Source: Hyphomicrobiales bacterium (lineage in GTDB: Bacteria > Pseudomonadota > Alphaproteobacteria > Rhizobiales > CAJQND01). Taken from it: 64,000 nucleotides of DNA. The position numbers and the translations under genes are program-made. Each line of letters starts with the position of its first letter. Positions within the stretch are counted from its first letter, which is position 1. The notes beneath the pieces were generated by a model, which was not told the DNA's origin, searched no databases, and saw only the letters and a program-made list of their open reading frames with translations. This document shows, in pieces, positions 8,627 through 55,900 of this stretch. Location: NCBI GenBank assembly GCA_028285595.1, contig JANQOW010000066.1, forward strand, positions 89,759 to 153,758, given 5' to 3'.

Positions 8627-9012
8627 CTGCTCCAGATCGTTTCTGACCTCCAGCTATGGCACATCGCGTCTACTTGAACGGGAAAGCCAGAGCTGAACAA
8701 GGCCAAACCTAAAGCAAAAATCAGCCTCTCCCGCCCCCCTCGCTGACCGCGTCGTCCTACACCCGCGGCGCATGTTCAGCACTTGTTTCGTCAAGCAGTC
8801 ATTTGGAAACTAATAGATTTCGCAGTAGGTCAAAACGCTGTGGAGCGACGAAACCTGTGCTTATCGTGAAATTGCCCTGCTTCGGTCACAAAGCTATAGT
8901 TTTCATCAACTTTAATTCTTTTTTGGGGCGGCGGCCTAACTCATTATCAGCAGCGAGGGTGTTAAGGTTCACTCAACCTTGTGTGGGCTTAATGTGAGTG
9001 CGGGAAAATCAG

Positions 9013-11481
9013 ATGTGTAACGTGTGCATGAGAGCGTCTGCGGAGCTCTGGGTGGAGGACCCAATCGCCGATGACGCACTATCAACCAGCGCGACTCTTA
9101 ATCAAGAGATTAAAGTCGATACGTCGGGGCAAACCAATACTGATGTGGTAGGGGCCGATCAGGGCGCATTTGGTTGGATTGCAGATAGTGTAGGCACTTC
9201 TAATCTGACGTCAGTGGACGGCGATCAGGAGATCTGGTCGACAAGTGGGGAAGTTGACTACTCGCACGAAGTTGTGGCCAGCGACCCTAGTCAAGATTGG
9301 AGCGGTAATTCGTCAAACCGTGGCCAACAAACCGTTGAAGTCGGCGAACTCCAGATCATCCAGGAAAACTCAGGCGAATCGGCTGGAACCGAAACTTCCG
9401 GAACGACCGGGCAAGAGGGTCCGGGAACGCCACCGATCGCCCTTCTGGCGGGAACTGCAGAAGGTGGCGAGGCATCTGGCACGTCGCAGGGATTTAACCA
9501 GGACTTGGTTGATCAACTGGATAGCGGTAACTACTGGTTTGAAGGCGGTGGCGCGGTTGCCCAAACCATTACTTACGGTTTCACAACAAACAGCAGCTTT
9601 GCATCGGGATATGGCGAGCAAAGCGGCTGGTCGGCGTTCGTGGCCAGCCAGGAAACCCTCACCCGCGAGATTATGGGACTTTGGGATGACCTAATTGCAC
9701 CGGCTTTCGTTGAAGATACCAGTTCCCCGGATACGGCCGACATAAAATTCTCAAACACAACCACCAACAATGGTTTCGCAAAAGCCTACGGACCAGGCCA
9801 GGTCAACGTAGAGTTCTTTCAGTTCCATAAGATTGAAGGTTCAGTCTGGCTGAATCCCAACTATAGCAGCGGTATCAATAACCTGATTGATCCGACTGCG
9901 GGTGATTTTGGCTATCAGGTGATTGCGCATGAAATTGGTCACGCCTTGGGCTTGAACCACGGCGGCAACTATAATGGTGGCTCGCCAGTGTATGGCGACA
10001 CCAGCACAGGTTGGCAGTACGTTGAAGACTCTCGCCAATACACCATCATGTCATATTTCAACGCCTCAGCGACTGGCGCGGATTATGATGGCAACTACGC
10101 CCAGACTCCTATGGTCTATGACATCATGGCGCTTCAGCAGCTCTATGGGGCAGATTACACCACGCGTTCAGGGGATACGACCTACGGCTTCAACTCGACT
10201 GCCGGTCATTGGCTTTACGACTACACGCTGAACACCGCACCCATCATGACAATTTGGGATGGAGACGGAACAGATACAATCGATCTGTCCGGGTGGAGCA
10301 CAAGTTCCACTTTGTCGTTGGTGGCTGGATCCTACTCAAGCGTCAACAGCATGACCTACAACTTGGCGATCGCCTACGACGTAGACATTGAAAACGCCCT
10401 TGGCGGTTCAGGCGATGACACCCTCACCGGCAATGATTTGAACAATACCATCGCCGGTAACGGAGGAGATGACCAGATCGAGGGTCACGAGGGGAACGAC
10501 AACCTCTATGGAGGCTCTGGTGAGGATGTGCTGCTTGGGGGCATCGGAGAAGATGGTTTGTTCGGCGGCACTGACAACGACGAATTGACGGGCGGAGCAG
10601 GCAACGACAGTCTTAATGGCGAACAAGGGGACGACACGCTTAACGGCGACGCCGGCATGGACTGGCTTTATGGAGGCGATGGTTTGGACGTCCTGAATGG
10701 CGGATCAGAAACCGATGCGCTTTTCGGTGAGGCTGGCAATGATACCTTAAATGGCGGCGCCGGCGGTGACAGCCTTGATGGTGGATTCGGCGACGACATC
10801 TTGAACGGCGGTGAAGGTGTTGATTGGTTATTCGGCTCATTTGGAGCCGACCAACTCAACGGCGGCGGCGATACTGATGCTCTTTTTGGACAAGAAGGCA
10901 ATGACATCCTGAACGGCGGCAGCGGTGGCGATAGCGTGGACGGCGGAGCTGATGACGACCAGTTGTTTGGGAACGACGGGGTCGATTGGCTTTTTGGTCA
11001 GGCCGGCAATGACCACTTGGACGGCGGGAATGATGCAGATGTGTTGTTCGCAGGCGACGGCAACGACACCCTCTTAGGGGGTGGTGATGGCGATAGCTTA
11101 GATGGCGGTGATGGGAACGACAGTTTGGACGGCGGCGCGGGTGTCGACGTCCTTTGGGGCGGGTTGGGTGCAGATACATTTGTATTTGCTGACCCCTCTC
11201 ATGGTGGCGATGTGGTGCGCGATTTCATCAGCGGCACCGATACAATCAACATCAGTCAGACAGGGTTTGGACTGTCGGTAAACGGCGCTCTCGCAGCCGA
11301 TATGTTTGAAACCGGAAATGGTCTGCCGTCTGACTTCGCAGCTTCCGGACCGGTGTTCTACCTTGACACTACTGGCAATGGGCTTTGGTTTGATCCGACC
11401 GGCGGAACGTCGACGGACGTGACAATCGTTGCCGGATTTGAGACAGGAACTCCGGTATTGTCCGACATCTTCATCGTATAA
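9013..11481 (+). CDS. Serralysin-like M10 zinc metalloprotease with RTX repeats
   Basis: HEIGHALGLNH (HExxHxxGxxH), Met-turn TIMSY, DIMALQQLYG, TIWDGDGTDTIDLS, IENALGGSGDD, RTX repeats. Start ATG 9013 (or GTG 8998). Confidence 0.92.
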   Translation: MCNVCMRASAELWVEDPIADDALSTSATLNQEIKVDTSGQTNTDVVGADQGAFGWIADSVGTSNLTSVDGDQEIWSTSGEVDYSHEVVASDPSQDWSGNSSNRGQQTVEVGELQIIQENSGESAGTETSGTTGQEGPGTPPIALLAGTAEGGEASGTSQGFNQDLVDQLDSGNYWFEGGGAVAQTITYGFTTNSSFASGYGEQSGWSAFVASQETLTREIMGLWDDLIAPAFVEDTSSPDTADIKFSNTTTNNGFAKAYGPGQVNVEFFQFHKIEGSVWLNPNYSSGINNLIDPTAGDFGYQVIAHEIGHALGLNHGGNYNGGSPVYGDTSTGWQYVEDSRQYTIMSYFNASATGADYDGNYAQTPMVYDIMALQQLYGADYTTRSGDTTYGFNSTAGHWLYDYTLNTAPIMTIWDGDGTDTIDLSGWSTSSTLSLVAGSYSSVNSMTYNLAIAYDVDIENALGGSGDDTLTGNDLNNTIAGNGGDDQIEGHEGNDNLYGGSGEDVLLGGIGEDGLFGGTDNDELTGGAGNDSLNGEQGDDTLNGDAGMDWLYGGDGLDVLNGGSETDALFGEAGNDTLNGGAGGDSLDGGFGDDILNGGEGVDWLFGSFGADQLNGGGDTDALFGQEGNDILNGGSGGDSVDGGADDDQLFGNDGVDWLFGQAGNDHLDGGNDADVLFAGDGNDTLLGGGDGDSLDGGDGNDSLDGGAGVDVLWGGLGADTFVFADPSHGGDVVRDFISGTDTINISQTGFGLSVNGALAADMFETGNGLPSDFAASGPVFYLDTTGNGLWFDPTGGTSTDVTIVAGFETGTPVLSDIFIV
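10657..11481 (+). repeat. RTX super-repeat plus C-terminal cassette, copy 2
   Basis: Collinear with 7802-8626: GGLGAD.FVF, GGDVVRDF.SG.DTI, SGPVFYL, GLWFDPTGG, IVAGFETG. Confidence 0.9.
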
Positions 11482-12882: not shown

Positions 12883-13309
12883 CTCGCGCGAAAAAATCTG
12901 ACGATCTAACAAGACCAAGCTCTCACGAGCCCGGCTTCTTCTCAACTTCTAGAACGTAAATTAATTTCCGTTATATAACAATAGGATAAAGGAATTAGTT
13001 CGAGCAAGAGCTTACACTCTGCCTTAGCCGATCGTCATTGATCACAACGAACACAAGATCTGAGATCATCAAAATTTTGGCTCGGATCGCCCATTGGTTG
13101 TACCAAGAATTTGCTCGCCAATTGCATGGAACCCAAGAATATCAGTTCGGTTCTGCAAAGCTGAAAAAATAAATTGACATCAGAGAACGGAGATCGTTAC
13201 TGGGTTGAACACGCATTAACCCTGATCCGAACGAATGTGCCCGGTATACCAATTCTTAAAGGTCCGCACGCAGTCTGCTAAGATTCTCGATTTGGGAGGG
13301 GTTAGGGCA

Positions 13310-14110
13310 TTGCGAACGATACTAACAGCAGCGTTTATCACTGTTCTGGCAGTGTCTCCTGGGGCTGCTGGAGAAACAGAGGTCGTGAAAACCAATATCA
13401 CGGTTCAATCCGGTGGATTGAGCGTGAGCAACGGGAATAGCGATCGGTTTTTCAGCAGTGCACACTTGGACTTTCTGACCCCCTCGGGACTGGGAATTCA
13501 CACTGAAGTTTCAGGCCATGTACGCGAGGAAGACGCAGCTTTTGTGTCCGGGGGCGTTTCTTACGCGTTAACCCCCATGATCCGACCAAAGGTCGTGGTT
13601 GGATCGAGCACCAGAAACAACCAGATCCTGCCGAGCTTTTTCACCCGTGGAGAAGTGCAATTTGATTTGGGACCCACTGCCGGTCTTCTGTTTACCCCTG
13701 AAATCAATTATCGCAAGTATCGGGTGGGGACTGAAGAGATCTCTGCCGGCGGCACGATTACAAAGTACTTCCCGCCGCTCAACGACGGGTCCTATTTGGT
13801 GGGATCTGTGCGCGGATCTGTGACTGACGTGTCGCCTGGGAACAACACCGGTTGGGAGGTGGGTGGATCGCTCATCTATGTGGCACCACAGTTCTACTCC
13901 TTCGGCGCAGAGGTTTTTGGGGGATTGATGGCCTACGATAGTGTGCTGTCGGTCGGCACCGCGGCGGTGCGCAACGAGTTCGTGGGCGTACGTCCGTTAG
14001 CAAGTACGTATGCCTCTGAGAATATCGAGCTCTTTTTGCGAGGTGAGTATGTGTCAACCGAGGCATATGACATTGCCGGCGGTTCTGCGGGTGTAAAAAT
14101 CGCCTTCTAG
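13310..14110 (+). CDS. YaiO-like outer-membrane beta-barrel protein
   Basis: Signal peptide from TTG 13310 (GGAGG upstream), alternating amphipathic beta-strands, C-terminal Phe (VKIAF); lies between wecB and a GT2. Confidence 0.65.
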   Translation: MRTILTAAFITVLAVSPGAAGETEVVKTNITVQSGGLSVSNGNSDRFFSSAHLDFLTPSGLGIHTEVSGHVREEDAAFVSGGVSYALTPMIRPKVVVGSSTRNNQILPSFFTRGEVQFDLGPTAGLLFTPEINYRKYRVGTEEISAGGTITKYFPPLNDGSYLVGSVRGSVTDVSPGNNTGWEVGGSLIYVAPQFYSFGAEVFGGLMAYDSVLSVGTAAVRNEFVGVRPLASTYASENIELFLRGEYVSTEAYDIAGGSAGVKIAF

Positions 14111-15409: not shown

Positions 15410-16426
15410 ATGCTCTTCATTTTTTTACAATTAGGGATCTTGGTGACCTTTTTTGGATCAATCATTTTGATCCACCTAATCTATTTTAAGACGGTTTTTT
15501 CAGCTGATACCCGGCTTAGGCTTTCCAGCCAATCGCAGCGCTGGAACGCAATCGACTTTCATCTGCTAATGTTCCAATCGGTTGAAGCTTCGTTACCGAA
15601 AGAAAAGGCGACGAACCGGCAATTCATGACCTTGCAGATGACACAGTTTGACATGGGTTTCGGCAGCCAACCCCTCGCCGTCCCATCGGGTGACATAAAC
15701 TATCACACAGCCAATGCCGTGCCTGATTTCTCGATTGCGTCCGCGCACGATGTGGCATTCGCGGGACAAAGCCGGTTCCCATACGTCTTCGCAAACGACG
15801 TTCGGATCACGCATCCTGACTCCATTACGGGACAGTATCTCGTTGCTCGGCAGAACATGTACCTGCGTTCAGAGAGCTTAGAGATAGATGCCCTGCTGGC
15901 GGGCGGCGATATTGAGGTAGATTGCGTGAGGTTTGCCACCAATCGAATTGCCGGAAGCTCATTCAGCATAAACGCAGAAACCATGCCGATGATCGGCCGC
16001 AAGGCATTTGAACTTGATCGGTCGCCCAACGCCGCCCGGAAATCAAAGTTTCTGATCACCGCGACATCATGGACGGGCGACAATGTAGTCCAGGATCACA
16101 TTGTCTGCACGAAAGACCTAAGCGTCGATGGGATCTGGATTTTCTTCGGCGATGTGAAGATCTATGGTGATCTGCAACTGAATGGCCCAACGATATTTTT
16201 GGGCACCGTCATTGTGAATGGTGATCTCCACGCTTTAGCAGACTGCGTGTTCATGTCGAACGTCGTGGTGAAAAAGCACTTTTTATGTGAGGGTGATGTC
16301 ATCGCTGGTCAGCCTCTCTCGCATCCGGTGAGCGTCGTTGCGAGAGATTTAACACTCACCAACTCTGTTGTCGGCAACGGTTTACTCTCATGCAGCAAGC
16401 GCATGGGGATCAGCTATGAGATCTAG
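15410..16426 (+). CDS. Membrane-anchored hypothetical protein with bactofilin-like/beta-helix C-terminal repeats
   Basis: N-terminal TM; repeated GDVKIYGDL, GTVIVNGDL, SNVVVK, EGDVIAG strands; 2 nt after the GT2 stop. Confidence 0.55.
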   Translation: MLFIFLQLGILVTFFGSIILIHLIYFKTVFSADTRLRLSSQSQRWNAIDFHLLMFQSVEASLPKEKATNRQFMTLQMTQFDMGFGSQPLAVPSGDINYHTANAVPDFSIASAHDVAFAGQSRFPYVFANDVRITHPDSITGQYLVARQNMYLRSESLEIDALLAGGDIEVDCVRFATNRIAGSSFSINAETMPMIGRKAFELDRSPNAARKSKFLITATSWTGDNVVQDHIVCTKDLSVDGIWIFFGDVKIYGDLQLNGPTIFLGTVIVNGDLHALADCVFMSNVVVKKHFLCEGDVIAGQPLSHPVSVVARDLTLTNSVVGNGLLSCSKRMGISYEI

Positions 16427-17045
16427 GTCTCTGTTGTACATTTCCAAGGTTGCGTCTCTCATTCTTCTGCTTTCTTTTACGGTTGCGTCCAATCTAATTT
16501 TTGCTTTTTTTCTCGAATGGACACAGTTCAGCACGTGCACCGGATATATTTTCAATTTCTTCTGTGAGTTTAATATTAAATATCAGTTTGATAGTTTTTT
16601 GTATTTTTTTGTAATATTATTTTTTGTAATTTCATTTTTTATAGCGGACCACATCTTCAAAGAGAGGAGCTTCTACCCGTTTATCAAAATGATAGTTTTA
16701 ATAATAATAATTTTGCTGATTTTTGACTTAATATTCAAACTACCTGTAAAAAATTTAGATAAACTCTACAGCAGTTCGTACAACGTCATCGACTTCATGA
16801 TAATACTGAATTTTAGTATCTTTATTATCCTAAATTTATCATCCATGGTAACGCTTTTAGCGGCTATGATAATTTCATTTTTTGTCAAATTTTTTTCGTT
16901 TTTCACGCTCTACATAATACTATCATTTATAGATGGGACACTTGGAACTTTTTTTATTTTCTTCACGTTTTCATTCGGTGCACTCACACCACATCTAATG
17001 TCACTGTGCATGGCGTTTCGATCACGCGGCGAACAACGAGTTTAG
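16416..17045 (+). CDS. AT-rich polytopic membrane protein, unknown function
   Basis: ATG 16416 overlaps the previous stop; about 6 Phe/Ile-rich hydrophobic segments. Confidence 0.6.
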   Translation: MRSRSLLYISKVASLILLLSFTVASNLIFAFFLEWTQFSTCTGYIFNFFCEFNIKYQFDSFLYFFVILFFVISFFIADHIFKERSFYPFIKMIVLIIIILLIFDLIFKLPVKNLDKLYSSSYNVIDFMIILNFSIFIILNLSSMVTLLAAMIISFFVKFFSFFTLYIILSFIDGTLGTFFIFFTFSFGALTPHLMSLCMAFRSRGEQRV

Positions 17046-17243: not shown

Positions 17244-17993
17244 TTAACGGGCAGCAGCCTTGCGTCTCCTGCGCCAACCCAGGAACCCCATCAAACCAAG
17301 ACCACCTGCCAGTAACGGCAGTGCCGCAGGCACTGGCACAGGCGTTAGGTCGAGTCTTACGCGCCTGCCGGCTTCTAAGTCCAAACTTATGCTTGTTGAA
17401 CCAAAGGAACTGACGGCCCATTGATTGATCCCAATTGGCGCGGTCAGGAATTGACCGAACATTGCCCAGCCATCACCATCTAAACTGCCCAGTGCGTAGC
17501 CGTCGGTGCAACATCCAAGCCAATTTTTGGTGCTATTAAACTGCGTTCCCCCACCGCTTACGCTCACCAATTCACTTGGATCGTCTGCTAGAACCTGTGC
17601 GGCCGTGTCACCCGTAAGGTTCCACTGCATACTAGTTGAGCCGCCGGATCCATCATTGGGGTTGTCGTGTACAACCACTAATGACAACCCATCCGAAGCA
17701 TCGAGCAAAAATATCTGCGACAATTGAGAGATAGGGCTAGGGCCGCCATTCTCGTCCCCGTTGTAACTAAACACATCTGGCGTGTCGTACTGATAAAACG
17801 CAGCGGTCGATAGGGACGTTGAAAAAGGATTCACAAAGCCCAAAACGTTGGCGTCAAAGTCACCAGAACCGGAAGAACTCTCTTGGGAGACCCGGAAAAC
17901 GGCCGCTTGAGCGGCATCATGAAAAGGTAAATAGGCACAAATGGAAAAAAACGACGCCACAACAACGCGGAACGTACGATTCAAGGTACTCAT
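17244..17993 (-). CDS. Secreted surface protein with a VPLPA-CTERM (PEP-CTERM-like) exosortase sorting signal
   Basis: N-terminal signal (AQA); C-terminal PVPVPAALPLLAGGLGLMGFLGWRRRRK = motif + TM + basic tail; GGAGG RBS. Confidence 0.88.
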   Translation of the reverse strand: MSTLNRTFRVVVASFFSICAYLPFHDAAQAAVFRVSQESSSGSGDFDANVLGFVNPFSTSLSTAAFYQYDTPDVFSYNGDENGGPSPISQLSQIFLLDASDGLSLVVVHDNPNDGSGGSTSMQWNLTGDTAAQVLADDPSELVSVSGGGTQFNSTKNWLGCCTDGYALGSLDGDGWAMFGQFLTAPIGINQWAVSSFGSTSISLDLEAGRRVRLDLTPVPVPAALPLLAGGLGLMGFLGWRRRRKAAAR

Positions 17994-19544: not shown

Positions 19545-20852
19545 TCAATTCCCGGCGGAGGCTTCGGGAGAAGGACCATCGCGAGTTGTTCGAGGTCTTC
19601 TGCGGCGTTGACCCGATCTGGAGGGGCGTCGGCCTCGCTCACGTGAGCTTTCCGTGTTATCTGGATTGGTTGAGAGTATCACCGCGACGAAGTAAGCGAA
19701 TAGCACACTGATTGCCATTGTTCGAAGCGGGTAATCGACCAAACTGTGAATGGCTAACGCCAATATCGACAGGGCCGCTGCTTCGGCCAACAAGGATCGC
19801 CGAAAGCTCCGTGCGATGAGCCCGAAAAAAAGGCCCACAATCAGGACACCGACGATCCCGACCTCGAGGAAGATCTCCAGATAATCGTTGTGCGCGTGAT
19901 TGATGTAGGCTGGCAGAACATCTTCAAGCGTCTCAAAAGAGGGATACACATAGGGGAACGCGCCAAGACCTGCACCGGTCAGCCAGTAAGTTTGGATGGC
20001 CTTCCATGAAGTCGCAAAGATAACCGGGCGGATATCTGTCGCATTGGAATCATCGAATCCAAACAAAGCGGAGATCAAGAGCAGCGCACACAATCCGGCC
20101 CCGAACAGGCTTATTCGGGGCATGAGCGCCAGTCGTTCCGTTTTGAACCAAGCCAAGCTGAGGACCGCCACCGCTGAAGATAGCGCCATTCCAGCCCTGG
20201 ATCCGACGGCAAAGAGATAAAACACAATGGCAGCTGATAGAGCTATATAGATCCAGACACGGCCATCTCTCACCACATAGCGGAAGGCCAATAACGGGAG
20301 CATGATGTAGGCCAGACTTGAAGCATGATTTTCGTTAGCCATCAGGCCAATGCTTGGGATGTAGGGCAATACGTCCAACGTATCCGGCAACTGTGGAGAC
20401 GACAGCTGGACCAGACCAGCGATCACATTCAACACAAAGCCAACAAACAGGAAAGGCAGCAATCGCTCCAACTCACGTTCGGAAAAACGCGAGAGAAAGA
20501 GCGCAAACCCGATGATGGTTAAGGCGAAGAGTGCAGATTCCAGACTTCTTTGCGGCACAGGGGTGAAGAACGACCAGCCGCCTGAACTCGGAAGAATGCC
20601 CGGCAGTTCAGCACTGCGAAGGACCGGAAGAAACTGCACCAGAATCACCACCAGTATTGCGGCCACCAGGCCTTTAGTGATGCCAGAAAACCTGCTCTTC
20701 GTTACTCCGATCAGACCAACGTAAAGTGCCGGCAATAACAGGATCTGTAGAAGATGATCTGACCACAACCCCTGTTGCGTTCCCCCACCAACAAGCATGG
20801 CGAAAACGATCATCGCACCTGCATAGCAGTACCTTACCGTAAGGGAGTGCAT
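19545..20852 (-). CDS. O-antigen ligase family protein (Wzy_C), copy A
   Basis: Polytopic; ANENH, GSRAG, GAGLGAF, NHAHNDYLE, HSLVDYPLRT. Confidence 0.88.
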   Translation of the reverse strand: MHSLTVRYCYAGAMIVFAMLVGGGTQQGLWSDHLLQILLLPALYVGLIGVTKSRFSGITKGLVAAILVVILVQFLPVLRSAELPGILPSSGGWSFFTPVPQRSLESALFALTIIGFALFLSRFSERELERLLPFLFVGFVLNVIAGLVQLSSPQLPDTLDVLPYIPSIGLMANENHASSLAYIMLPLLAFRYVVRDGRVWIYIALSAAIVFYLFAVGSRAGMALSSAVAVLSLAWFKTERLALMPRISLFGAGLCALLLISALFGFDDSNATDIRPVIFATSWKAIQTYWLTGAGLGAFPYVYPSFETLEDVLPAYINHAHNDYLEIFLEVGIVGVLIVGLFFGLIARSFRRSLLAEAAALSILALAIHSLVDYPLRTMAISVLFAYFVAVILSTNPDNTESSRERGRRPSRSGQRRRRPRTTRDGPSPEASAGN

Positions 20853-20858
20853 GCGCCA

Positions 20859-22304
20859 TCAACCCCGAGCTGGCATAATGGCGATACGATTCAGCAACAG
20901 TGTTCCAGAATAAAGGTAGCTTTGTCTCCAACTGTTGGGCGTTTCTTGAGTAGACACATAGACTCTTTGCATTGAGCAATCGGCATCGGGCACCGTGAAG
21001 GAGATGCTTTCTTCGGTTGCGCTTGCATCTTCCTGTTCAAAGACATGCATCGCCAGTCGTGCGTTATTGCTTCCCAAGCATGCGATGATAAGTCGAAGTG
21101 GCTTGGGAACTCGTAGACCCCGAGCGGAGTACGCCACCGAAAGTTGATAGGCACCAGGAGCCATGCCGATCAACTGGGACACACTTCCGCGTCGGACCGG
21201 CGTTCCCAGAAACCGAATTGAAAGCCCTTTCTGAGTATCCACTGTCCCATCCGAGGTCTCGTTAGAATTACTTTCGGCAGCATCGGTGCTTTGTCCTACA
21301 AATTCGAAATCAACGCCTGCCTGTCTTCGCACCTGCCAATCAAACCGGTTGCCTCTAACAGGTTGGTTAAAGGTTCCATTGTAAAGGAGGTTCGTTCCTG
21401 AGATGACGCCTCCTGGCCTCGTGCGTTTGAACAAGTCATAGCCTTCCTCCGCCAAATCTTGAGAGACGAGCAACGAAGTAGCTTGGTTCACGAGAGGATC
21501 AAGGTCTAGAATCTTCCTTTCATGCCAGGCGAGAAGAACTGGCGTCAGATGAATCATGCCTTCACTGGAAGCCGTGAGCGCATCTATCAAGCGCGCGCGC
21601 AGGATGTCATCTTGCGCAAAACGACTAGTCACAGCCGCAAACGCTTGGCTATCGGATAGAAGCTCTGGAATGATCGCTTCGATGGCAGGCCAATATCCCC
21701 ATCTGCGCCCTATGATTTCCAGTTGATCAATTGTGGCTGAAATGTCGCCGCGCTCATACGCCATGCCCAATGTGTTGGCGAGGGCCATTACCTCGGTGGG
21801 AAGGATCTTGAGAGCTTGCTTATACAGTATGGCGGCCGTGTCCCGATCATCGGTTTGCTCGGCCGTCAAACCCATTAGCGAGTAAAACCGAGCATCAAGG
21901 GGGGTGTGCACAATCCCTGCATTTATGATGTCGATTGTTTCAGGTGCCGGCGCACTTCGTTCAGCCTCCAATCGGGCATAAGCAACATTGACCCGCGCCT
22001 CTGTATTAAAGGGATTCAGGTGCAACGAAAGCTCAGGCAACCGGGTTTGCAACGAGACACTTGCCGTGTTCAACACAAGCGCAATGGTGGCCAAAATGCA
22101 AATCGCGAAGCACAGGCCCCTAACGATGCTCTGGAGCGGACCGCCCCGTAACTTGGCAAGAAGATCTGACCGCTTGGCCGTCCCGGCTCTCCGAGAAATA
22201 GGCGAAACTAGTTCGATTTCCGTCACGCGATTACCCCCTAGGCGACAACTACTATAGGATCCGTATCGCCCGCCAGGCTTACCTGTGTTGGGGACCGCCT
22301 CCAC
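20859..22304 (-). CDS. TM-anchored TPR-like protein with C-terminal beta domain, copy A (true start may be downstream, e.g. GTG about 22226)
   Basis: One TM, TPR-like helices (PLDARFYSLMG...ALKILP), C-terminal LYNGTF...RFDW; paralog of 32376-33599. Confidence 0.7.
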   Translation of the reverse strand: MEAVPNTGKPGGRYGSYSSCRLGGNRVTEIELVSPISRRAGTAKRSDLLAKLRGGPLQSIVRGLCFAICILATIALVLNTASVSLQTRLPELSLHLNPFNTEARVNVAYARLEAERSAPAPETIDIINAGIVHTPLDARFYSLMGLTAEQTDDRDTAAILYKQALKILPTEVMALANTLGMAYERGDISATIDQLEIIGRRWGYWPAIEAIIPELLSDSQAFAAVTSRFAQDDILRARLIDALTASSEGMIHLTPVLLAWHERKILDLDPLVNQATSLLVSQDLAEEGYDLFKRTRPGGVISGTNLLYNGTFNQPVRGNRFDWQVRRQAGVDFEFVGQSTDAAESNSNETSDGTVDTQKGLSIRFLGTPVRRGSVSQLIGMAPGAYQLSVAYSARGLRVPKPLRLIIACLGSNNARLAMHVFEQEDASATEESISFTVPDADCSMQRVYVSTQETPNSWRQSYLYSGTLLLNRIAIMPARG

Positions 22305-22535
22305 ACCGGCGAGGCGAAAACAGTGTCAACAACACGAACGCTGCCATGTTCTCGTCGACAGGCTGACATATTATCATCACATATTGCCCTGATATTGAGA
22401 CGGTCGCCAATATAATGGGTTTTTAGACCGAATAATGGCGGTAATTTAAATGAACTAGGGTTGCGTCGTGGTTGATAAAATGTTTACGTAGTGTAATGCT
22501 GCGGGGCACCACAAGCGAGAACGGGCGGATCAGAC

Positions 22536-23132
22536 ATGTGGTTAAAGTCGTTATTGGTTCAGACAGTTTTCTTAACAGTTCTAGCGCTTTTCGTTAGCGC
22601 ACCCACTCAAGCGGCAGTTGCCCCTGCTTCAGCGGGATTTGAGTCGGCACAAGCGGCGCGAAGCCTGGGCGATGTCCAAGGCTTGGTAGAAGCAGAGACC
22701 GATTTTGAACGCATCAAAGTGGCCACCTATGGCCGCAAGTGGCGTTATTGGCGGGTCAGGTGGCACAGACCACGTCATCGGCATTGGCGTCGTCCATACC
22801 CGAAGCGTTGCTTCTATCATTGGAAGAAAAAGAAAAAGCACGGCGATGACGACGATGACGGCAAGCATGCTTGGCAGGGCGACGACGACGATGGTGACAA
22901 CCGCTGGTGGGGCGGTAAAGGAAACAAGTACAAGAAACACTACAAGCTAAAGCGCCGCTACGCTCGTTACGGGTATGGTCGGCACTTCGGCCGCTACAAA
23001 GCCCGCGATCGTTACTGGAAGTATCGTCGGTATGTCGGCTACAGAGGCCACAAGCGCTTCAAGAGATGGAAAAAGTGGAGACGCTACTACCATGGTAAGC
23101 CTTGGTGGAAGCGTTGTCCCATCAGCAAATAA
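22536..23132 (+). CDS. Secreted Arg/Lys/Trp/Tyr/His-rich low-complexity protein with a central poly-Asp block
   Basis: Sec signal ending TQA; own terminator directly after the stop; strongly biased composition. Confidence 0.8.
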   Translation: MWLKSLLVQTVFLTVLALFVSAPTQAAVAPASAGFESAQAARSLGDVQGLVEAETDFERIKVATYGRKWRYWRVRWHRPRHRHWRRPYPKRCFYHWKKKKKHGDDDDDGKHAWQGDDDDGDNRWWGGKGNKYKKHYKLKRRYARYGYGRHFGRYKARDRYWKYRRYVGYRGHKRFKRWKKWRRYYHGKPWWKRCPISK

Positions 23133-23137
23133 AGATC

Positions 23138-23163
23138 AGAGCCCTTCGGGGCTCTTTTCTTTT
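23138..23163 (+). terminator. Intrinsic terminator
   Basis: AGAGCCC-TTCG-GGGCTCT followed by TTTCTTTT, 5 nt after the stop of 22536-23132. Confidence 0.9.
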
Positions 23164-23688
23164 GGCATCGCGTCAAATTGCTGAATGTCGATGAGTTGAA
23201 CAGCATCGTCCCATTCCGTGCATCTTTCATGTAGAGCCGCATTGATGGACGCGGTCACGACCCCCTGCCTTAGAACCAGAGTGTCGAGAGCAACCGAGAC
23301 GATCTCAAACCAATGCGGCGCCACTTGGTTGCGCCAAACGCATCAGAGAAAGACTGGGTTTCCCAATTACTCTTCACGGTAAGACGCTGACCGCGACAAT
23401 CTGAAATTGTCCGTGCACGGAGAATAAAATGTCCCGGTCAAGCGGGACACTCCTCGGCGAGGCTGTCGCTAATCTACTTTTGAGGAGGCTCGTCAAACTC
23501 CAGAATTCGACCAATGAGATCGCACTTCCTTCCGCTAGCGATCGCCACTTTTTGTTCACAAACGCGACACATTCTTATGATGAGAATAATCTTTAAGAAT
23601 GAGTTAAGGGCGGCTCGCTTCAAAACAGATCTACGTAGCGTAGTGTCACGCTCGGTCTGCTTAACGAGAGACGCCCCAAGCACGGGGG

Positions 23689-24219
23689 TTGGTCTTGAAA
23701 GTGGCTCAGTCGATTGCGTCACCTGAAGAAGTGTTGTGGTGCGTCGTAAAAACGAAGCCAGGCCAAGAGGTTCGAGCGGAGCAAAATCTGCTTCGTCAAA
23801 GCTACTCAGTTTTCCACCCCAAGCGAACAACGACCCGCAGAAGCCGAACTGGCTGGACGCAGAGGCTGGTCACACTTTTTCCTGGTTACGTATTCGTTTG
23901 CGTCGACCGGGAGGGCGTTAATTGGGCCCCTATAAACTCCACATACGGGGTGCAGGGCCTAATCACGATTGGAGGACAGCCAGCAGCTCTTCCGCAAGAT
24001 TTTGTTGAAGAGCTCAGATCACGCTGCGCTGGAAGAAGTCGGACGATAAACAATCCAGATCTTGTAGAAGGGCAAAAAGTTCAGTTTTCAAAAGGGCCGT
24101 TCACGGAACTTGTAGGTGAAGTGGAACGCGCGGGACCAAAGGACCGCGTGCGCTTGCTGATGGACATGTTGAACGGTCAAATTTCAGTCGAAACCAAAAG
24201 AGAATATTTGTTGAACTAA
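23689..24219 (+). CDS. RfaH-like NusG-paralog transcription antiterminator
   Basis: WCVVKTKPGQE, LFPGYVFV, INSTYGV, KOW motif GQKVQFSKGPF; first gene of a long EPS operon. Confidence 0.88.
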   Translation: MVLKVAQSIASPEEVLWCVVKTKPGQEVRAEQNLLRQSYSVFHPKRTTTRRSRTGWTQRLVTLFPGYVFVCVDREGVNWAPINSTYGVQGLITIGGQPAALPQDFVEELRSRCAGRSRTINNPDLVEGQKVQFSKGPFTELVGEVERAGPKDRVRLLMDMLNGQISVETKREYLLN

Positions 24220-24232
24220 CCGGGGTGGTCAA

Positions 24233-25534
24233 ATGAGTTCAGAGTTCTCCCAACCGTTGGCGTCGATAAGTCCAGGATTACACTTCCGGACAAGTTTGCT
24301 CTTGCGGAACCGTTTCCAGCTATTCGGCGGCATATTTTTTGCTGTTGTCTGGCCAGTTCTTCTGCGAACCACATACGAACAATCAAATTGGTTCAGCCAG
24401 ATAAACATCACTACGATGAGCGCTGGTGCCAGTGCCATTCTTATGGGGTTTTATCTCAATCGCAGAATGACAAATTTCCCAGGCGTTCAGGCTATGTTTT
24501 ACATTGCTCCGATCTTCGTGAGCTGCTTCGCCTTGTTCGCCTTTTTGTTTCTGCTCTTTCGGATAGACTACAGCAGGTACCTCTTTTTTTCCTCACTTGC
24601 ACTGTCCATCGTGTGGTTCTACGCCATACATATCTCAACGCGCAGGTTGCGCCCGCTGAAACTGTCTGTTGTCCCACGAGGGAGCGCATTGGGGTTGGAG
24701 GCATTGAAAAGCGTCAATTGGTCGGTACTGAAGCAACCGATCTTTCCTGCTGAACGCATTGATGGTGTCGTTGTGGACCTTCGCAGTGACTTGGATGAAG
24801 ACTGGGGCAGGTTCATAACGGATGTGGTTTTAGCAGGCGTTCCCGTATTCCATGCTAAGCACGTGAAAGAGTCACTCACTGGCAGGGTAGAAATTGATCA
24901 TCTCTCCGAGAATGTGTTCGGCTCGCTGGTGCCTGGACTGCTCTATCTCAAATTGAAGCTTATGATTGATCGCTGCGCTGCAGCCGTGGTGCTTGTACCA
25001 TTAGTGCCGATCATGATCGTTATCGCTTTTTTGATCAAGCTGGAAAGCCCAGGCCGGGTGATATTCACCCAACGCCGCATGGGTTTCCGCGGCAAACCGT
25101 TCACCATGTACAAGTTCCGAACCATGATCGAGGCGCCCGAAAAACCCTCCACGGTTGAGAGCGAGAAGACCCGGGAAGATGACCCCCGCATCACCAAGAT
25201 CGGGAAGTGGCTTCGCAAACACCGGATGGATGAGCTGCCGCAGATCATAAACATCATGAAGGGTGAAATGAGTTGGATCGGCCCGCGCCCGGAGGCCTAT
25301 AATCTCTCAAAAGCTTATGAGGCCGACCTCCCCTACTATCGCTATCGCCATATCGTACGCCCGGGCATCAGCGGTTGGGCGCAGGTCAACCAAGGCCACG
25401 TGGCTGAAGTGAACGATGTTCACGAAAAGCTTTACTACGATTTCTATTACATTAAGCACTGCTCGCTTTGGCTTGATATCCTGATATCTCTTCGAACCAT
25501 TAGGACCGTGGCGCTTGGCCTCGGAGCAAAGTAA
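24233..25534 (+). CDS. Initiating polyprenyl-phosphate glycosylphosphotransferase (WbaP/WcaJ family)
   Basis: 4 N-terminal TMs, KFRTM, DDPRITKIG, DELPQ, GPRPE, PGISGWAQV. Confidence 0.93.
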   Translation: MSSEFSQPLASISPGLHFRTSLLLRNRFQLFGGIFFAVVWPVLLRTTYEQSNWFSQINITTMSAGASAILMGFYLNRRMTNFPGVQAMFYIAPIFVSCFALFAFLFLLFRIDYSRYLFFSSLALSIVWFYAIHISTRRLRPLKLSVVPRGSALGLEALKSVNWSVLKQPIFPAERIDGVVVDLRSDLDEDWGRFITDVVLAGVPVFHAKHVKESLTGRVEIDHLSENVFGSLVPGLLYLKLKLMIDRCAAAVVLVPLVPIMIVIAFLIKLESPGRVIFTQRRMGFRGKPFTMYKFRTMIEAPEKPSTVESEKTREDDPRITKIGKWLRKHRMDELPQIINIMKGEMSWIGPRPEAYNLSKAYEADLPYYRYRHIVRPGISGWAQVNQGHVAEVNDVHEKLYYDFYYIKHCSLWLDILISLRTIRTVALGLGAK

Positions 25535-30079: not shown

Positions 30080-32521
30080 ATGAACTTTCATACACCGCCA
30101 GACAGAAGGCAACCCGCCCCACCCCCAGCGCCTATTGATCCGTACGCGCAGGACAGGTCCGTGCCGGCACCATGGCCGGGGGACCAGTATTTCCAATCAG
30201 GGCCTGCAACTTTCGACGAAGAGCGCTCCTTTGATGTGGTAAAAGTGTTTTGGCTGGTCTGGAGCTTTCGCTGGCTGATCCTTGTCCTGCTCGCCGTTGG
30301 CCTGACCGTCGGTTACGCTTTAACGTTGTTGCAGGTCCCCAAGTACCGCGCCACCACTCAGCTTGAGATCCATTCAAACGCCGCCCGTGTGATCCAAGAT
30401 CTGGCTGTTGTGAATGAGGTCTCTGATAACCGGGCGTTTAATACGGCGGTCCTAAAGCTAAAAAGCAAGGAGCTTCTGCGTCGAACCGTTCACAGTCTCA
30501 ATCTGGTCCATAACCCGAGCTTCCTTTATCCGCCCAAAAACCTGGCTTTCGAGAATCTCTGGGCACGTGTCACGGGCACCACTGCGAAACCCAAACTTCC
30601 AGATGACTCGATTGAGACTCGCGAGGAAATCGCAATAGCTCAAATTCGAGATAGCTTGAATGTGCAACTGATGCGCGACACCAGCGTCATCGCTATCTCA
30701 ATGAGCAACCAAGATCCCAAGATCGCAGCACGGATCTCAGACCAACTCGCCACGAGCTACATTGACCAGCGCATAGACCAAACCGCCGAGACCTCTGATC
30801 TGGCAAGCCAACTTATCCGCAGACAAGTGGGCGAGCTCAAAGAGCGCCTTGAGCAGTCCGAGAAAGAGTTGGTGACCTATGCCAAGACCAAAGGCATTAC
30901 GGTCAATGACGAAGAGGGCGCGTTGGTTGCCGACAACATCAAGTCCATAAACGAGGCACTAGGAGAGGTCATTCGGGAGCGCTTAGTGCTTGCCCGACAG
31001 GTCAAGCAAATCGCGGCCGGAAACGGCAAAGACTTGCCTGAGGTCTTGGAAAGCGAACCCATCCAGAATCTAAGACAGGAAATTGCGAAGCTCAATGCCG
31101 AGTACCGGCAGAAACTCAGCAAATTCAAACCCCAATATCGCGAGATGCGCGCCCTCAGCGCTCAAATTGGCGAGCTACGATCTCAGGTGAATGGTGGCAT
31201 CAAAAGCATCCTGGACACGATTAATCTCAAGCATAACGACGCCATTGCCAAGGAGAACAGTCTCAAAGCAGAGCTCACTCAGTTGGAAGCTGAATATGCG
31301 GAGTTCCAGGACAAAAACATCCAGTACACCATCCTGAAGCGCGAGGTTGACTCCAACCGTAAGCAATACGAGAGCCTGATTGACAAGCTCAACGAAGTGA
31401 ATGTCGCCTCAGAAATCAAGAACGAACGCGCTGTGATCGTAGAGCGCGCGTCAGTTCCCAAGTTGCCCTTTGAACCGAGGCTATCAAGGAACCTCATCTT
31501 GGCCTTTGTCCTATCCTTAGGCGCGGCCGGCCTGGTAATTTACATCTTTGAGCTCTTCAACAATACATTTCGTTCGCCCGACCAGATCGACAGCGAACTG
31601 GGCCTATCTATCCTTGGGATCATCCCGCGAGTAGAGGGTGAAGACCTGGAAGAACAGTTGAGTACCAATAGCTCAGCCATATCCGAAGCCTATCGATCGC
31701 TTCGCACTTCTCTGCAGTTTCTGGGTCCTGACGGTCCACCAGCCACCATTGTGGTGACCAGCGCAGAACCTTCCGAGGGGAAGACCACCACTAGCAAAAA
31801 ACTTGCTGAAGAGTTTGGCGCTCTGGGCAAGCGCGTCCTGCTCATCGATGCCGACATGCGCCGGCCTAACCTGCATAGGGTCCTCAATTTGAGGAATGGC
31901 ATGGGCCTCAGTAATCTGCTCACAAACACCGTGGAAGCTCACGAAGCCAATAGCTCGGAAATCTTTAAGACCAGCGGGCTGCCCAACGTAACCGCAGTTA
32001 CCTCAGGAACCCCGCCCCCCAATCCAGCCAACTTGCTCTCTTCTGAGAAGATGGGCTGGTTTGTGCACTCATGTTCCAACAAGTTCGATCTGGTGATCAT
32101 TGATGCTCCACCCGTTCTTGGGATCTCCGATGCACTTCTCTTGTCACGGCTCGCCGACGCTACACTGTTCGTTGTCTCCGCCCATCAGGTGAGCCGCAAA
32201 TCCGCTCAGCTGGCCTCCATGCGCCTCCGCAGCGCCGGAGCCCACATTGCCGGCGCTGTACTCAGCAGTTTCAATGTGGAAGATGCGGGCTATGGCTACA
32301 ATTACGGCTATCTGGGCTACGGCTATTACAACTACGGTGAAGCCGGTCCCACGCAACGTAGTAGGGAGCTAAAAAATGGGGCGAGCGAACGGCGGAAAAC
32401 CAAGCGACGCAGTTCGCTTCTTGAGCGCGCTGCTGATTATCTCCCTAATCCTGCTAAACGGGATAAGCGCCCTGTTGCAAAAAGACGCCCCCCAAATCGC
32501 CAGGATACTAAACCCGTTTAA
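30080..32521 (+). CDS. wzc: Polysaccharide co-polymerase / tyrosine autokinase
   Basis: Two TMs flanking a coiled coil, EAYRSLRT, Walker A EGKTT, IDADMRRP, IDAPP, Tyr cluster GYGYNYGYLGYGYYNY. Confidence 0.93.
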   Translation: MNFHTPPDRRQPAPPPAPIDPYAQDRSVPAPWPGDQYFQSGPATFDEERSFDVVKVFWLVWSFRWLILVLLAVGLTVGYALTLLQVPKYRATTQLEIHSNAARVIQDLAVVNEVSDNRAFNTAVLKLKSKELLRRTVHSLNLVHNPSFLYPPKNLAFENLWARVTGTTAKPKLPDDSIETREEIAIAQIRDSLNVQLMRDTSVIAISMSNQDPKIAARISDQLATSYIDQRIDQTAETSDLASQLIRRQVGELKERLEQSEKELVTYAKTKGITVNDEEGALVADNIKSINEALGEVIRERLVLARQVKQIAAGNGKDLPEVLESEPIQNLRQEIAKLNAEYRQKLSKFKPQYREMRALSAQIGELRSQVNGGIKSILDTINLKHNDAIAKENSLKAELTQLEAEYAEFQDKNIQYTILKREVDSNRKQYESLIDKLNEVNVASEIKNERAVIVERASVPKLPFEPRLSRNLILAFVLSLGAAGLVIYIFELFNNTFRSPDQIDSELGLSILGIIPRVEGEDLEEQLSTNSSAISEAYRSLRTSLQFLGPDGPPATIVVTSAEPSEGKTTTSKKLAEEFGALGKRVLLIDADMRRPNLHRVLNLRNGMGLSNLLTNTVEAHEANSSEIFKTSGLPNVTAVTSGTPPPNPANLLSSEKMGWFVHSCSNKFDLVIIDAPPVLGISDALLLSRLADATLFVVSAHQVSRKSAQLASMRLRSAGAHIAGAVLSSFNVEDAGYGYNYGYLGYGYYNYGEAGPTQRSRELKNGASERRKTKRRSSLLERAADYLPNPAKRDKRPVAKRRPPNRQDTKPV

Positions 32522-33599
32522 TACCTCAGCTCAGGTAACGTATCTGCAGGCTGAGCTCTCAAAAGACCCCGAACCTGAGGCGTTAATCCATTTAGAAGCC
32601 ACAGCAGCCCGCACCATTGCATTCGCACCAGCCCGCGCCGAAGCCCACAGCTGGGCAGCGGAGGTCGCCTACCGCGCCCACCGCGAGCAAGAAGCACAGA
32701 AGCTCATTGACCGCGCCCTGAGCCTCAGACCCATTGACCTTCAGGCCAATTTGGCGCGCTTGCGAGAAGCCAGCGAACGCCAAGATGTGGTCGAAGTTCT
32801 GCACCGCCTTGATGTAATCGGCCAATATTGGCCAGCGAGCTTTCCGTCTGTCGCCCCAAATGCAGATCTGGCTCTGGCAACCAAGGCAGACAGCCAAGCA
32901 CTTGAGGAATTGATCGGCCGCGATCCCCCTTGGCGAGAAGCGCTCATTCAGCATTTGATGATCACCGAAGCGGGTCGAACCTTTCTCGAACATCTGTTCG
33001 TGCGAGAAGCTGAACTTGGCAAGTCCGTGGATACAGAACACCTCAACGATATCATGGAACGGTTGCTGAAAAGCGGGGCAGCAGCAAAAGCTTACCGCCT
33101 TTTCGTCCGCACCTTGAGCGAGCAAGGGCGCCGACAGCTCGGGACCATCCATAACGCTAAATTCCATCCGCGCATCGGAAACAGTCCCTTTAACTGGTCC
33201 AAACCAAACTGCCCGGCCTCTGAAACCACCCTTTCGGGGGCCAGCGAAGGTTTAATTGTCCGCTTTCTCGGGACACCGGCGCGGCACTGCGGCATTCGCC
33301 AGGTCCTGGTCTTATCGCCCTTGTCAGCAACTTGGACCGTCCGGATTTCTGCAGACAATCTGAACGTTCCCTCTGGGCTGCACTGGAAACTGTCTTGCGG
33401 AAACGGCGCCCTCTTAGCAGAGATCGACGTGCCGCCGGGCACTTATGAGCCGAGACAGTTGAGTCGCTCCTTCCAAACACCAGAGCGCCAGTGCCCCTTC
33501 CAGATCATCGAGCTCAGCACTGGCGAGAACACGTCCAGTTGGCGCAATCGCTATTCTGGAACAGTCCGTTTTCACGAGCTCTCCATATCATCTGAATAG
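32376..33599 (+). CDS. TM-anchored TPR-like protein, copy B
   Basis: Shares LNPFNT.A.V, RFLGTP, SWR..YSGT with 20859-22304; AGGGAG upstream of the ATG; overlaps wzc by 146 nt. Confidence 0.75.
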   Translation: MGRANGGKPSDAVRFLSALLIISLILLNGISALLQKDAPQIARILNPFNTSAQVTYLQAELSKDPEPEALIHLEATAARTIAFAPARAEAHSWAAEVAYRAHREQEAQKLIDRALSLRPIDLQANLARLREASERQDVVEVLHRLDVIGQYWPASFPSVAPNADLALATKADSQALEELIGRDPPWREALIQHLMITEAGRTFLEHLFVREAELGKSVDTEHLNDIMERLLKSGAAAKAYRLFVRTLSEQGRRQLGTIHNAKFHPRIGNSPFNWSKPNCPASETTLSGASEGLIVRFLGTPARHCGIRQVLVLSPLSATWTVRISADNLNVPSGLHWKLSCGNGALLAEIDVPPGTYEPRQLSRSFQTPERQCPFQIIELSTGENTSSWRNRYSGTVRFHELSISSE

Positions 33600-33608
33600 G
33601 CTCTATCC

Positions 33609-34802
33609 TTGTCCCGCGTTGCAAATACCCAAGTCTACTATCTGGGTGGGCTGCTGATCACAGCACTGATTATCGGTGGTGGAACGAACAAGGCTCTCTC
33701 CACAGACTTCCTTCTTCAGCTCCTGGTGATCCCAGCCCTACTCTGGGTCATCTATCGACATGAGTTCAAACAAACTCCTTACCTGAAGACGACGTGTCTT
33801 GTTGTCCTATTTGCAGCCTGTACCCCCTTGGCGCTGAGCTCCGCGCGAACCTTTGGGTTTGACATTGGCACGGCAGACATCGGCCGAACTCTGGACTCTG
33901 TTATATTTCTTGTTATTGGCATCGTCGTGTTTTGCTTCACGCTCCATTTGAGCGAGATGCAAAGAGCCCGGATCGCGCAGTTTCTGCTTATCGGCGTTGC
34001 CATCAACATCGCTTTTTCCATTGCCCAGTTTTCCGCACAACAAACAGCAGTTACCCTTTCGGGATTTCCTTTCAGTGTCGAAGCGGGCTTTTTTGAAGTT
34101 GGACGTCATCTGCAGGCCCTGCTGCTGGTGGCGATCCCGTTCATAATGCTGGCCTTTAAGAACACCACTTGGTGGTTTCTGTCGGTGCCGCTGGCTCTGG
34201 CCCTAGCGCTCTATCAGTTCTTGTTGGGCTCAACGGCCGGCGTTCTGGCAGGATTGGTATGTGTTATGGCCGGTCTTGGGATCGTGACCAGCAAGGCCCC
34301 CGTCCGGATCGGGGCAGCCGGGGCGGCCATACTGGGGACCGCCTGCCTCACATACTTCATCCCGGAACTCTTGACCACTGAGCTCGCGGGCGGTCAAACC
34401 TGGGCAAGACTTCAGCTTGCTGCCACGACGGCCCAGCAAGCCTATCTGCCGTTCGGCAGCGGGTATGGCACCTTCGATCTGGTTTACCCCCAGTATGGGG
34501 CACAGGACCGAACCGCCCTCGCCTTCCCTAATCACGCACACAATGACTATTTGGAGCTGGGCATTGAAGGAGGAGTGATCGTCATTGCCCTCCTTGTGGT
34601 CTATGTGGCAGGATTTCTCGCAATGATTGCCCGCGGCGGCTTAACAGATTTCCAGAAGGCCGCGGCTCTGGGTATCGCCGTTCTGCTTGTTCAGTCCTTG
34701 ATGGATTATCCTTTGCGCACCTTGGGACTCGCCATGGTCTTCTCATATCTCAACGCCATTGTATTTGCAGGCGTGTTCTCAAAACAACAGTTGACGGCGT
34801 GA
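33609..34802 (+). CDS. O-antigen ligase family protein, copy B (divergent)
   Basis: GGGT...LLQLL.IPAL, PFGSGYGTF, NHAHNDYLE, QSLMDYPLRT. Confidence 0.82.
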   Translation: MSRVANTQVYYLGGLLITALIIGGGTNKALSTDFLLQLLVIPALLWVIYRHEFKQTPYLKTTCLVVLFAACTPLALSSARTFGFDIGTADIGRTLDSVIFLVIGIVVFCFTLHLSEMQRARIAQFLLIGVAINIAFSIAQFSAQQTAVTLSGFPFSVEAGFFEVGRHLQALLLVAIPFIMLAFKNTTWWFLSVPLALALALYQFLLGSTAGVLAGLVCVMAGLGIVTSKAPVRIGAAGAAILGTACLTYFIPELLTTELAGGQTWARLQLAATTAQQAYLPFGSGYGTFDLVYPQYGAQDRTALAFPNHAHNDYLELGIEGGVIVIALLVVYVAGFLAMIARGGLTDFQKAAALGIAVLLVQSLMDYPLRTLGLAMVFSYLNAIVFAGVFSKQQLTA

Positions 34803-51147: not shown

Positions 51148-51260
51148 GTCAACCTCCCGTCCGGTTACAATTGAAACACAATGCCAAGGCCCCAGCAATC
51201 AGACTGAAACACCGCTCCGCCACTGTTCCGGCCTCAGCCAAAGGCCAAAAGGAGCCGTTG

Positions 51261-55894: not shown

Positions 55895-55900
55895 AAGTGC

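Follow-up and report, generated by a model that had tools for sequence, protein, structure and literature searches.

The window considered here, meaning the whole stretch of DNA that was analysed, comprises 64,000 nucleotides (nt) from a Hyphomicrobiales bacterium (assembly GCA_028285595.1, contig JANQOW010000066.1, positions 89,759 to 153,758, forward strand). A polysaccharide island of the Wzx/Wzy type occupies ~1-50.5 kb of the window, and metabolic genes follow from ~51 kb on. In the centre of the island lies the target of this analysis, an open reading frame (ORF) at 22536..23132 on the + strand that begins with ATG, contains 198 codons for 198 amino acids (aa) and carries its stop codon within these coordinates. 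Its product is predicted to be an exported polycationic protein rich in aromatic residues, and scans against Pfam and NCBIfam returned 0 families.

Three segments were distinguished in the protein. The signal peptide (residues 1-26, 22536..22613, +) was read from the sequence by eye, and consists of a basic MWLK start, a 16-residue hydrophobic core and the segment SAPTQA|AV, in which the predicted cleavage (TQA|AV) is preceded by small residues at -3 and -1, as in Sec-type signals. Relatives of the protein have the same layout and retain the signal peptide (SGPSHA|AL), and residues 2-20 were modelled by AlphaFold2 (AF2) as a helix. The protein had been described as secreted in an initial annotation of this DNA; the predicted Sec signal supports export to the periplasm, while passage beyond the periplasm is not inferable from sequence. 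The signal is followed by a mildly acidic spacer, possibly a pro-region (residues 27-62, 36 aa, 22614..22721, +, net charge -3), which ends in a conserved ERI[KR]V before ATYG. The remainder (residues 63-198, 136 aa, 22722..23129, +, net charge +38) is a polycationic aromatic domain with the composition R26 K23 Y16 G14 W13 D11 H10 P5 C2 and Glu 0 (R 19.1%, K 16.9%, Y 11.8%, W 9.6%); the full protein has 14 Trp, one of them inside the signal peptide. Two [RK]Px[WP]K[RH]C motifs occur in the domain, with PYPKRC at residues 87-92 (Cys92, codon 22809-22811) and PWWKRC at residues 189-194 (Cys194, codon 23115-23117), and the chain terminates in a conserved CPISK. When the 31,794 ORFs of the same genome that reach 60 aa were ordered by the product of K+R and aromatic content in an 80-residue window, the target ranked first. 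Translation of the ORF thus confirmed the R/K/W/Y/H-rich region with 13 Trp and no Glu that the initial annotation had reported, and both its Cys-containing motifs and its two Asp-rich blocks were present where it had placed them.

An exhaustive phmmer (HMMER) scan of 1,835,955,588 cluster representatives recovered one relative cluster, P0002 (188 aa, E 1.8e-43), of which P0003 is a second member at the 90% level. The target, P0002 and P0003 can be aligned over their full length, signal peptide included, and share an identical CPISK at the C-terminus; several in-frame indels leave both ends in register. Identity between the target and P0002 was 62% in the cationic domain, 46% in the signal and 39% in the spacer, the least conserved segment; the corresponding values between P0002 and P0003 were 98%, 85% and 76%. 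The global alignment score of the cationic domain was 400 vs 67.9 +/- 15.5 (maximum 117) in 1,000 shuffles (z = 21), and since this lies far above the shuffles, the conservation of the domain is not an effect of composition. Both Cys are invariant across the three sequences, as are Arg 18/26, Lys 15/23, Tyr 10/16 and Trp 6/13, with Asp at 1/11. The cationic domain of the relatives has 125 residues, 21-22 His and a net charge of +47 or +46, preceded by a spacer of net -5 or -6. Shared by all three are the signal element P-x-x-A|A-[VL]-A-P, a helix-prone acidic spacer ending ERI[KR]V-ATYG, two cationic and aromatic arms, one Cys in each of the two [RK]Px[WP]K[RH]C motifs, and the CPISK end. Judged from these comparisons, the target is a real gene in a conserved frame, and the cationic, aromatic domain is its conserved and selected part.

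The family is tiny, with three sequences, and the target is nearly an orphan. In a word-indexed search of 5.8 billion proteins, the single-sequence query returned the target itself only, and a two-row profile returned the target and P0002. Chance-level pieces only (E >= 0.0019, mostly with stops) were found in 40 genomes of relatives, the target was present in 0/5 same-genus genomes, and a profile search of 401 genomes of the order matched the target's own genome and 0/400 others. Pattern searches gave 599 matches in all species-representative genomes and 594 in JGI metagenome contigs, of which 0 and 0 were confirmed. The genes of the relatives are known from contigs of 1,003 and 8,543 bp (the latter that of P0003), and the comparison covers their protein sequences.

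The source organism is an uncultured alphaproteobacterium, whose closest triosephosphate isomerase matches (61-65% identity) are alphaproteobacterial. Its DNA occurs in coral metagenomes. A second coral sample (run X2) contains a related strain, 95-99% identical, that retains the locus. Differences are fewest in the piece of this strain that covers the C-terminal cationic block (6/328 nt), compared with 11/460 in the 5' end and leader, 15/445 and 9/252 in neighbouring genes, and 41/571 in the next intergenic region and the RfaH-like gene downstream. Run X4 contained almost none of the sequence words and yielded one 36-nt partial piece, which is no evidence, and the parts of the ORF left uncovered in run X2, as in the RNA library X3 described below, are uninformative.

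The two acid blocks, GDDDDDG (residues 103-109) and GDDDDGD (residues 115-121), correspond at the DNA level to a 27-nt direct repeat with a spacing of 36 nt (22838..22900, +; repeat family D1, 81% identity). Both blocks are absent from P0002 and P0003, which have a His-rich stretch at the same place. One contig of the X2 strain carries the acid-block pieces in a different order, with a loose end whose translation is KGGDEDDDGD; this suggests variation in the copy number or sequence of the Asp blocks. The blocks are a young, lineage-specific insert, which looks variable between strains, and are no property of the family. The protein had been presented as a "block polyampholyte", a description that fails on two counts: the blocks are a local duplication missing from the relatives, so the term does not fit the family, and with charge fractions of f+ 0.36 and f- 0.08 the domain of the target itself is a strong polycation with two small acidic inserts and not a balanced polyampholyte.

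The AF2 model computed on the three-row alignment had a mean pLDDT of 51.1 and a pTM of 0.20, with helices at low confidence only. These values were read as the absence of a stable fold, and the protein is probably disordered for the most part. Residues 127-198 show a period of 3 in the positions of the aromatic residues (P = 0.002 vs shuffles), and P0002 has the same period 3 for aromatic and for basic residues. At the DNA level the cationic blocks contain no tandem repeats apart from an AAGAAA run and a GAY run, so the period-3 pattern is no recent repeat expansion. Neighbouring aromatic-basic pairs numbered 29 vs 23.1 +/- 3.6 in shuffles (P = 0.07), which leaves enrichment of adjacency unclear. 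In its composition (K+R 36% and W+Y+F 24% of 136 residues) and in its low-confidence, non-globular model, the domain resembles the cationic/aromatic wet adhesives, which form a functional class and no homology family. A sequence profile search of the PDB gave a best E of 2.1, to zinc-finger chains, and the ESM Atlas a best score of 0.82, below the usable level, with no named cluster. The PEP-CTERM models PF07589 and TIGR02595 did not match the target (Pfam E <= 0.01, NCBIfam E <= 0.001), the C-terminus of which reads ...HGKPWWKRCPISK.

Signals for transcription were sought on both sides of the ORF. A promoter-like site (22389..22416, +) made up of CTGATA, a 16-nt spacer and TATAAT agrees with the consensus at 10/12 positions and lies ~120 nt 5' of the start codon; it is a consensus match only, and promoter-like sites in the region numbered 2 vs 1.1 +/- 1.0 in shuffles. 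The putative 5' leader contains an ops-like element, GGCGGTAATTT (22437..22447, +), with 1 mismatch to GGCGGTAGNNT, the ops consensus known from E. coli RfaH work and enterobacterial in origin. Matches of this kind are not above chance across the window (16 vs 10.1 +/- 3.2 expected), and the site was retained as a weak lead because an RfaH-like gene lies just downstream; the 533-bp gap upstream of the RfaH-like gene itself contains no ops-like site at <=1 mismatch. On the 3' side, a hairpin resembling an intrinsic terminator (23138..23155, +; AGAGCCC-TTCG-GGGCTCT, 7 bp with 5 GC pairs, then the T-run TTTCTTTT) begins 6 nt past the stop codon. The left neighbour (20859-22304) is divergent, on the opposite strand, and the right neighbour starts 557 bp downstream. 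The gene had been called monocistronic with a strong terminator; the terminator-like hairpin was found, and a monocistronic unit is plausible from the layout of the neighbours. Run X3, a coral metatranscriptome library from another study, contributed a 154-nt contig that matches 22495-22648 with 2 differences, and this is the sole part of 21500-24500 that is covered in that run. The contig is a hint that the target is transcribed, and is taken as a hint only because DNA carry-over is possible. Two further elements were considered and rejected. A lysine riboswitch (Rfam) in 22000-24300 was sub-threshold and on the opposite strand (16.7 bits vs a cut-off of 30), and a 14-nt motif ~49 nt upstream of the target and RfaH-like starts had 2 matches vs 0.8 +/- 1.05 expected, a number reached in 21/100 shuffles, with the two leaders aligning unconvincingly.

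The island around the target begins on the left with acyltransferase-3/SGNH and glycosyltransferase genes, followed by two RTX-repeat proteins, a UDP-GlcNAc 2-epimerase and a PEP-CTERM protein. Its centre holds, in order, a gene like the ATPase of the PEP-CTERM system (295.6 bits vs a cut-off of 324.5), a Wzy-like gene, a 481-aa protein resembling tetratricopeptide repeat (TPR) proteins, the target and the RfaH-like regulator (112.8 bits vs a cut-off of 144.5). An exopolysaccharide (EPS) priming transferase, ManC, Gmd, an epimerase, a Wzc-like kinase, a second TPR-like/Wzy-like pair and a Wza-like export protein follow, and the right part contains a gene like UDP-sulfoquinovose synthase (SqdB), a flippase, further glycosyltransferases, FkbM-type and other methyltransferases and a sulfotransferase. 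The initial annotation had referred to a sulfonated/sulfated EPS, and the genes in question were recovered: the sulfotransferase at 47075-48019 (+; PF13469, 3.7e-19), and the SqdB-like gene at 37452-38621 (+; E 8.5e-101, 337.7 bits, below the cut-off of 575). Their presence in one polysaccharide operon is a hint of a polymer bearing both sulfonate and sulfate groups.

The GC content of the island (window 1-50600) is 52.2% vs 59.2% for the genome. At third codon positions (GC3) the target has 0.59, the island 0.586 +/- 0.039 (36 ORFs) and the flank at 50601-64000 0.694 +/- 0.027 (11 ORFs); the target shares the codon composition of the island. In the five same-genus genomes, which are 73-100% complete, the RfaH-like gene was present in 0/5, and the 481-aa neighbour of the target was represented only by a 30%-identical paralogue, in 2/5. 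The island is not common to the genus, and looks either acquired or fast-evolving.

Several other features of the island were recorded. The first RTX-repeat protein (4541-8626, +) is adhesin-like, with G8, CEMIP beta-helix and cadherin-like domains, and the second (8998-11481, +) has a serralysin/reprolysin-like metalloprotease domain; both are possible type I secreted matrix proteins. The PEP-CTERM protein (17244-17993, Pfam/NCBIfam) lies 4.5 kb from the target, and an exosortase lies ~28 kb upstream of the window. Three Wzy-like genes occur in the island. The pairing of a TPR-like protein (~410-480 aa) with a Wzy-like membrane protein is seen at 19545-22304 (-) and again at 32376-34802 (+), and a third copy of the TPR-like/Wzy-like type is located elsewhere in the genome (G000:C70:30281-31513). 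The copies are ~30% identical, and the third is the one common to same-genus genomes, where it adjoins a Wzc-like gene. Four ORFs of the island, of 225-414 aa, have no Pfam or NCBIfam match (13235-14110, 15410-16426, 16368-17045 and 49267-50511).

Taken together, these observations are tentatively interpreted as a disordered exported polycation that binds and condenses anionic polymers, of which the polysaccharide of the island would be the most likely. The Sec pathway would carry the protein across the inner membrane, after which the signal peptide would be removed, and the mature remainder would be a mostly unfolded chain, ~136 residues of it with a charge of ~+38 and with an aromatic residue at about every third position of its second half. 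Such a chain could act as a multivalent binder of polyanions, in which pairing of Arg and Lys with sulfate, sulfonate or carboxylate groups would be supplemented by cation-pi and sugar-stacking contacts from Trp and Tyr. The two Cys may close a loop of 101 residues or join chains by disulfides. The likeliest partner would be the sulfated or sulfonated polysaccharide of the island, which could be condensed or cross-linked at the cell surface or in the matrix. The initial annotation had likewise proposed a cationic EPS binder, and that proposal is partly supported: the gene is real, its export signal and conserved domain were identified and the island context was found, but the acid blocks are unconserved and secretion past the periplasm is unsupported. 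It is reasonable in kind and over-specific.

A number of observations weigh against a dedicated role at the island's polysaccharide. The link to the polysaccharide consists of adjacency in one genome, at the single locus for which gene context was available. No type II secretin (GspD) scored over the cut-off in the genome (best 111.2 bits vs 351.35), and as a Sec signal reaches the periplasm only, the route out of the cell is unexplained. Expression evidence consists of the one 154-nt RNA-library contig described above. Classical heparin-binding (Cardin-Weintraub) motifs are few, with one XBBXBX and one XBBBXXBX in the target, 0 + 2 in P0002 and 0 + 1 in P0003, although strict counts of these motifs say little because the density of basic residues is far above the motif minimum. 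Inspection of 6 loci with RfaH-like genes and 4 with paralogues of the 481-aa protein, in relatives and in the target's own genome, showed no analogous polycationic ORF next to these genes. Proteins of this general type are also found elsewhere. At least six other candidate ORFs in the genome combine a signal-like segment with a tail rich in Arg, Lys, aromatic residues, Gly and His (G000:C149:2514-2855, +; G000:C120:88182-88508, -; G000:C120:97885-98478, -; G000:C9:43657-44004, -; G000:C161:10739-11092, +; G000:C97:6246-6608, -); no Pfam family above noise was assigned to the six, and in two of them the signal is twin-Arg-like, poly-Arg/Trp runs occur and the chain ends in YYDPYY. The ORFs at G000:C149:2514-2855 and G000:C120:88182-88508 are real genes conserved in the genus, one in 4/5 and the other in 3/5 same-genus genomes, and for one of them the 5.8-billion-protein set contains 11 clusters of relatives, each either unnamed or "hypothetical". 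Their neighbours, of which only the N-termini were read, look like housekeeping genes (methionine-sulfoxide-reductase-like, guanylate-kinase-like and proton-pyrophosphatase-like), from which it follows that such proteins need no polysaccharide locus. Small exported polycations thus appear to be a habit of this lineage.

These same ORFs, both as a set of six and in the conservation, surroundings and functionally unnamed clusters of the two, lend weight to a less probable explanation, in which the target is a general envelope polycation, one of the lineage's small exported set, that binds anionic components other than the product of the island. Candidate partners are lipopolysaccharide, periplasmic glucans, peptidoglycan-associated polymers, extracellular DNA and host sulfated mucus, and the place of the gene in the island would be incidental or only regulatory. 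The lack of a type II secretin over the cut-off and the origin of the DNA in coral metagenomes agree with such a role. However, comparison with these ORFs gave no sequence similarity (best E 0.05 over 19 residues); the target is missing from 5/5 same-genus genomes, unlike its conserved cousins, and has the low GC3 of the island, with which it therefore travels. It is unlikely, though arguable from the order of signal, acidic piece and cationic domain with a conserved junction, that the protein is the precursor of a cationic antimicrobial or host-directed peptide, cut at ERI[KR]V/ATYG and possibly also at the acid-block linker, whose Arg/Trp/Tyr/His-rich product would attack the membranes of competitors or fungi in the coral holobiont. 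The 21-22 His in 125 residues of the relatives, the likeness to Arg/Trp-rich and histatin-like peptides and a conserved Cys pair able to form a loop fit this proposal. A pro-piece expected to neutralise its product was not found, as a spacer of -3 in the target (-5/-6 in the relatives) is unable to mask +38 (+47/+46); at 136 residues the product is far above the typical length of such peptides, the linker between the two putative peptides is unconserved, and export into the producer's own periplasm would expose its membranes. No linked maturation-protease, transporter or other export gene, or immunity gene was identified by Pfam or NCBIfam among the flanking genes, which encode the 481-aa TPR-like and Wzy-like proteins, the PEP-CTERM-system ATPase, the RfaH-like regulator and the EPS priming transferase.

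Two further explanations would give weight to other parts of the locus. Binding of metal or mineral, in which the Asp/His linker would take divalent cations while the cationic and aromatic arms nucleate or bind mineral or polyphosphate at the cell surface, is suggested by the coral habitat and by the linker, which alone differs in kind between the relatives and does so in classical metal-binding residues (D11 vs H21-22). The conserved parts, though, are the cationic arms and not the linker, and no metal-related gene is nearby, which makes this quite improbable. Least probable of all is a regulatory leader unit, in which transcription and translation of the target would control read-through into the RfaH-like gene and the polysaccharide operon and the peptide itself would matter little. 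The ops-like site with one mismatch in the leader, the terminator 6 nt past the stop codon and the RfaH-like gene next in line would suit such a unit. On the other hand, ops-like matches occur at chance frequency and are judged by an enterobacterial consensus, 533 bp separate the terminator from the RfaH-like start, and the protein is conserved position by position with the cationic domain most constrained, which would be needless for a mere leader.

Within the interpretation of the target as a polycation that binds the island's polysaccharide, a more specific version can be drawn that we regard as improbable. The island would then encode both halves of a two-component glue, with the sulfated or sulfonated polysaccharide condensed by the Trp/Tyr-rich polycation into a coacervate or gel at the cell surface that is set by disulfide chaining through the two Cys. 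The strain-variable acid blocks would tune the charge balance, and the whole would be the bacterial equivalent of cements that marine animals form from oppositely charged components. If the target does bind the polysaccharide of the island, a matrix cross-linker would be encoded within the biosynthesis locus of its own polysaccharide, which would be a rarity, and its sequence (~+38, an aromatic residue at every third position, two Cys) would provide a compact natural template for adhesives that hold under water or for coacervates at sea-water salt. The wider set of small exported polycationic proteins that this coral-associated lineage seems to carry is unannotated. The target itself is a verified and unusual gene with a putative role that is plausible.

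Among known systems, the nearest to the target in its proposed mode of working are matrix proteins. Precursors of cationic antimicrobial peptides carry an anionic pro-piece, and histatin-type peptides are rich in His, Lys, Arg and Tyr. The target has the same order of signal, acidic piece and cationic product and is rich in Arg, Trp, Tyr and His, but its acidic piece is far too weak, its product would be 125-136 residues long, and no processing, immunity or transport genes are nearby. The PEP-CTERM proteins of exosortase-linked loci are, like the target, exported and encoded among polysaccharide genes, whereas the target is without the PEP motif, the C-terminal membrane helix and the family match, and ends in KRCPISK. 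A search of the literature on bacterial polycation-polysaccharide coacervates in biofilms returned reviews only and no direct precedent, which is not proof of absence from print.

Two matrix proteins described in print are closer in character. The analogy with Bap1 and mussel foot proteins drawn in the initial annotation is borne out by the published account, in which a 57-aa loop of Vibrio cholerae Bap1 (Y 8.8%, W 8.8%, K 12.7%) is likened to mussel foot proteins (PMC10102183). The Bap1 loop and the target domain are both rich in aromatic and cationic residues; as far as that account describes it, the loop is extracellular and linked to the matrix, with multivalent charge and aromatic contacts as the mode proposed. 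There is no sequence relationship between the two, the one cluster found in the exhaustive search being unrelated to Bap1, and, according to the same text, the loop is inserted into a folded adhesin of the beta-prism/beta-propeller type, whereas the target is a free-standing chain without a recognisable domain. The target domain has far higher charge, is Arg-rich and contains a Cys pair. Sbp, the small basic protein of Staphylococcus epidermidis, forms condensates with DNA (PMC12828985). It is described as a secreted, strongly basic and partly disordered scaffold of the biofilm matrix of ~16-18 kDa, and the target fits this description in size, export signal, charge and predicted disorder. Sbp is likened to the target by description only: its host is Gram-positive, it is not reported in that account as Trp/Tyr-rich or as encoded in a polysaccharide locus, and its partner is DNA, where a sulfated polysaccharide is proposed for the target. 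Neither Bap1 nor Sbp is known to be a sequence relative of the target, and neither account places its protein in a polysaccharide locus. By analogy with these systems, and as a protein of no curated family, the target appears to belong in kind with the secreted polycationic matrix and adhesive proteins.

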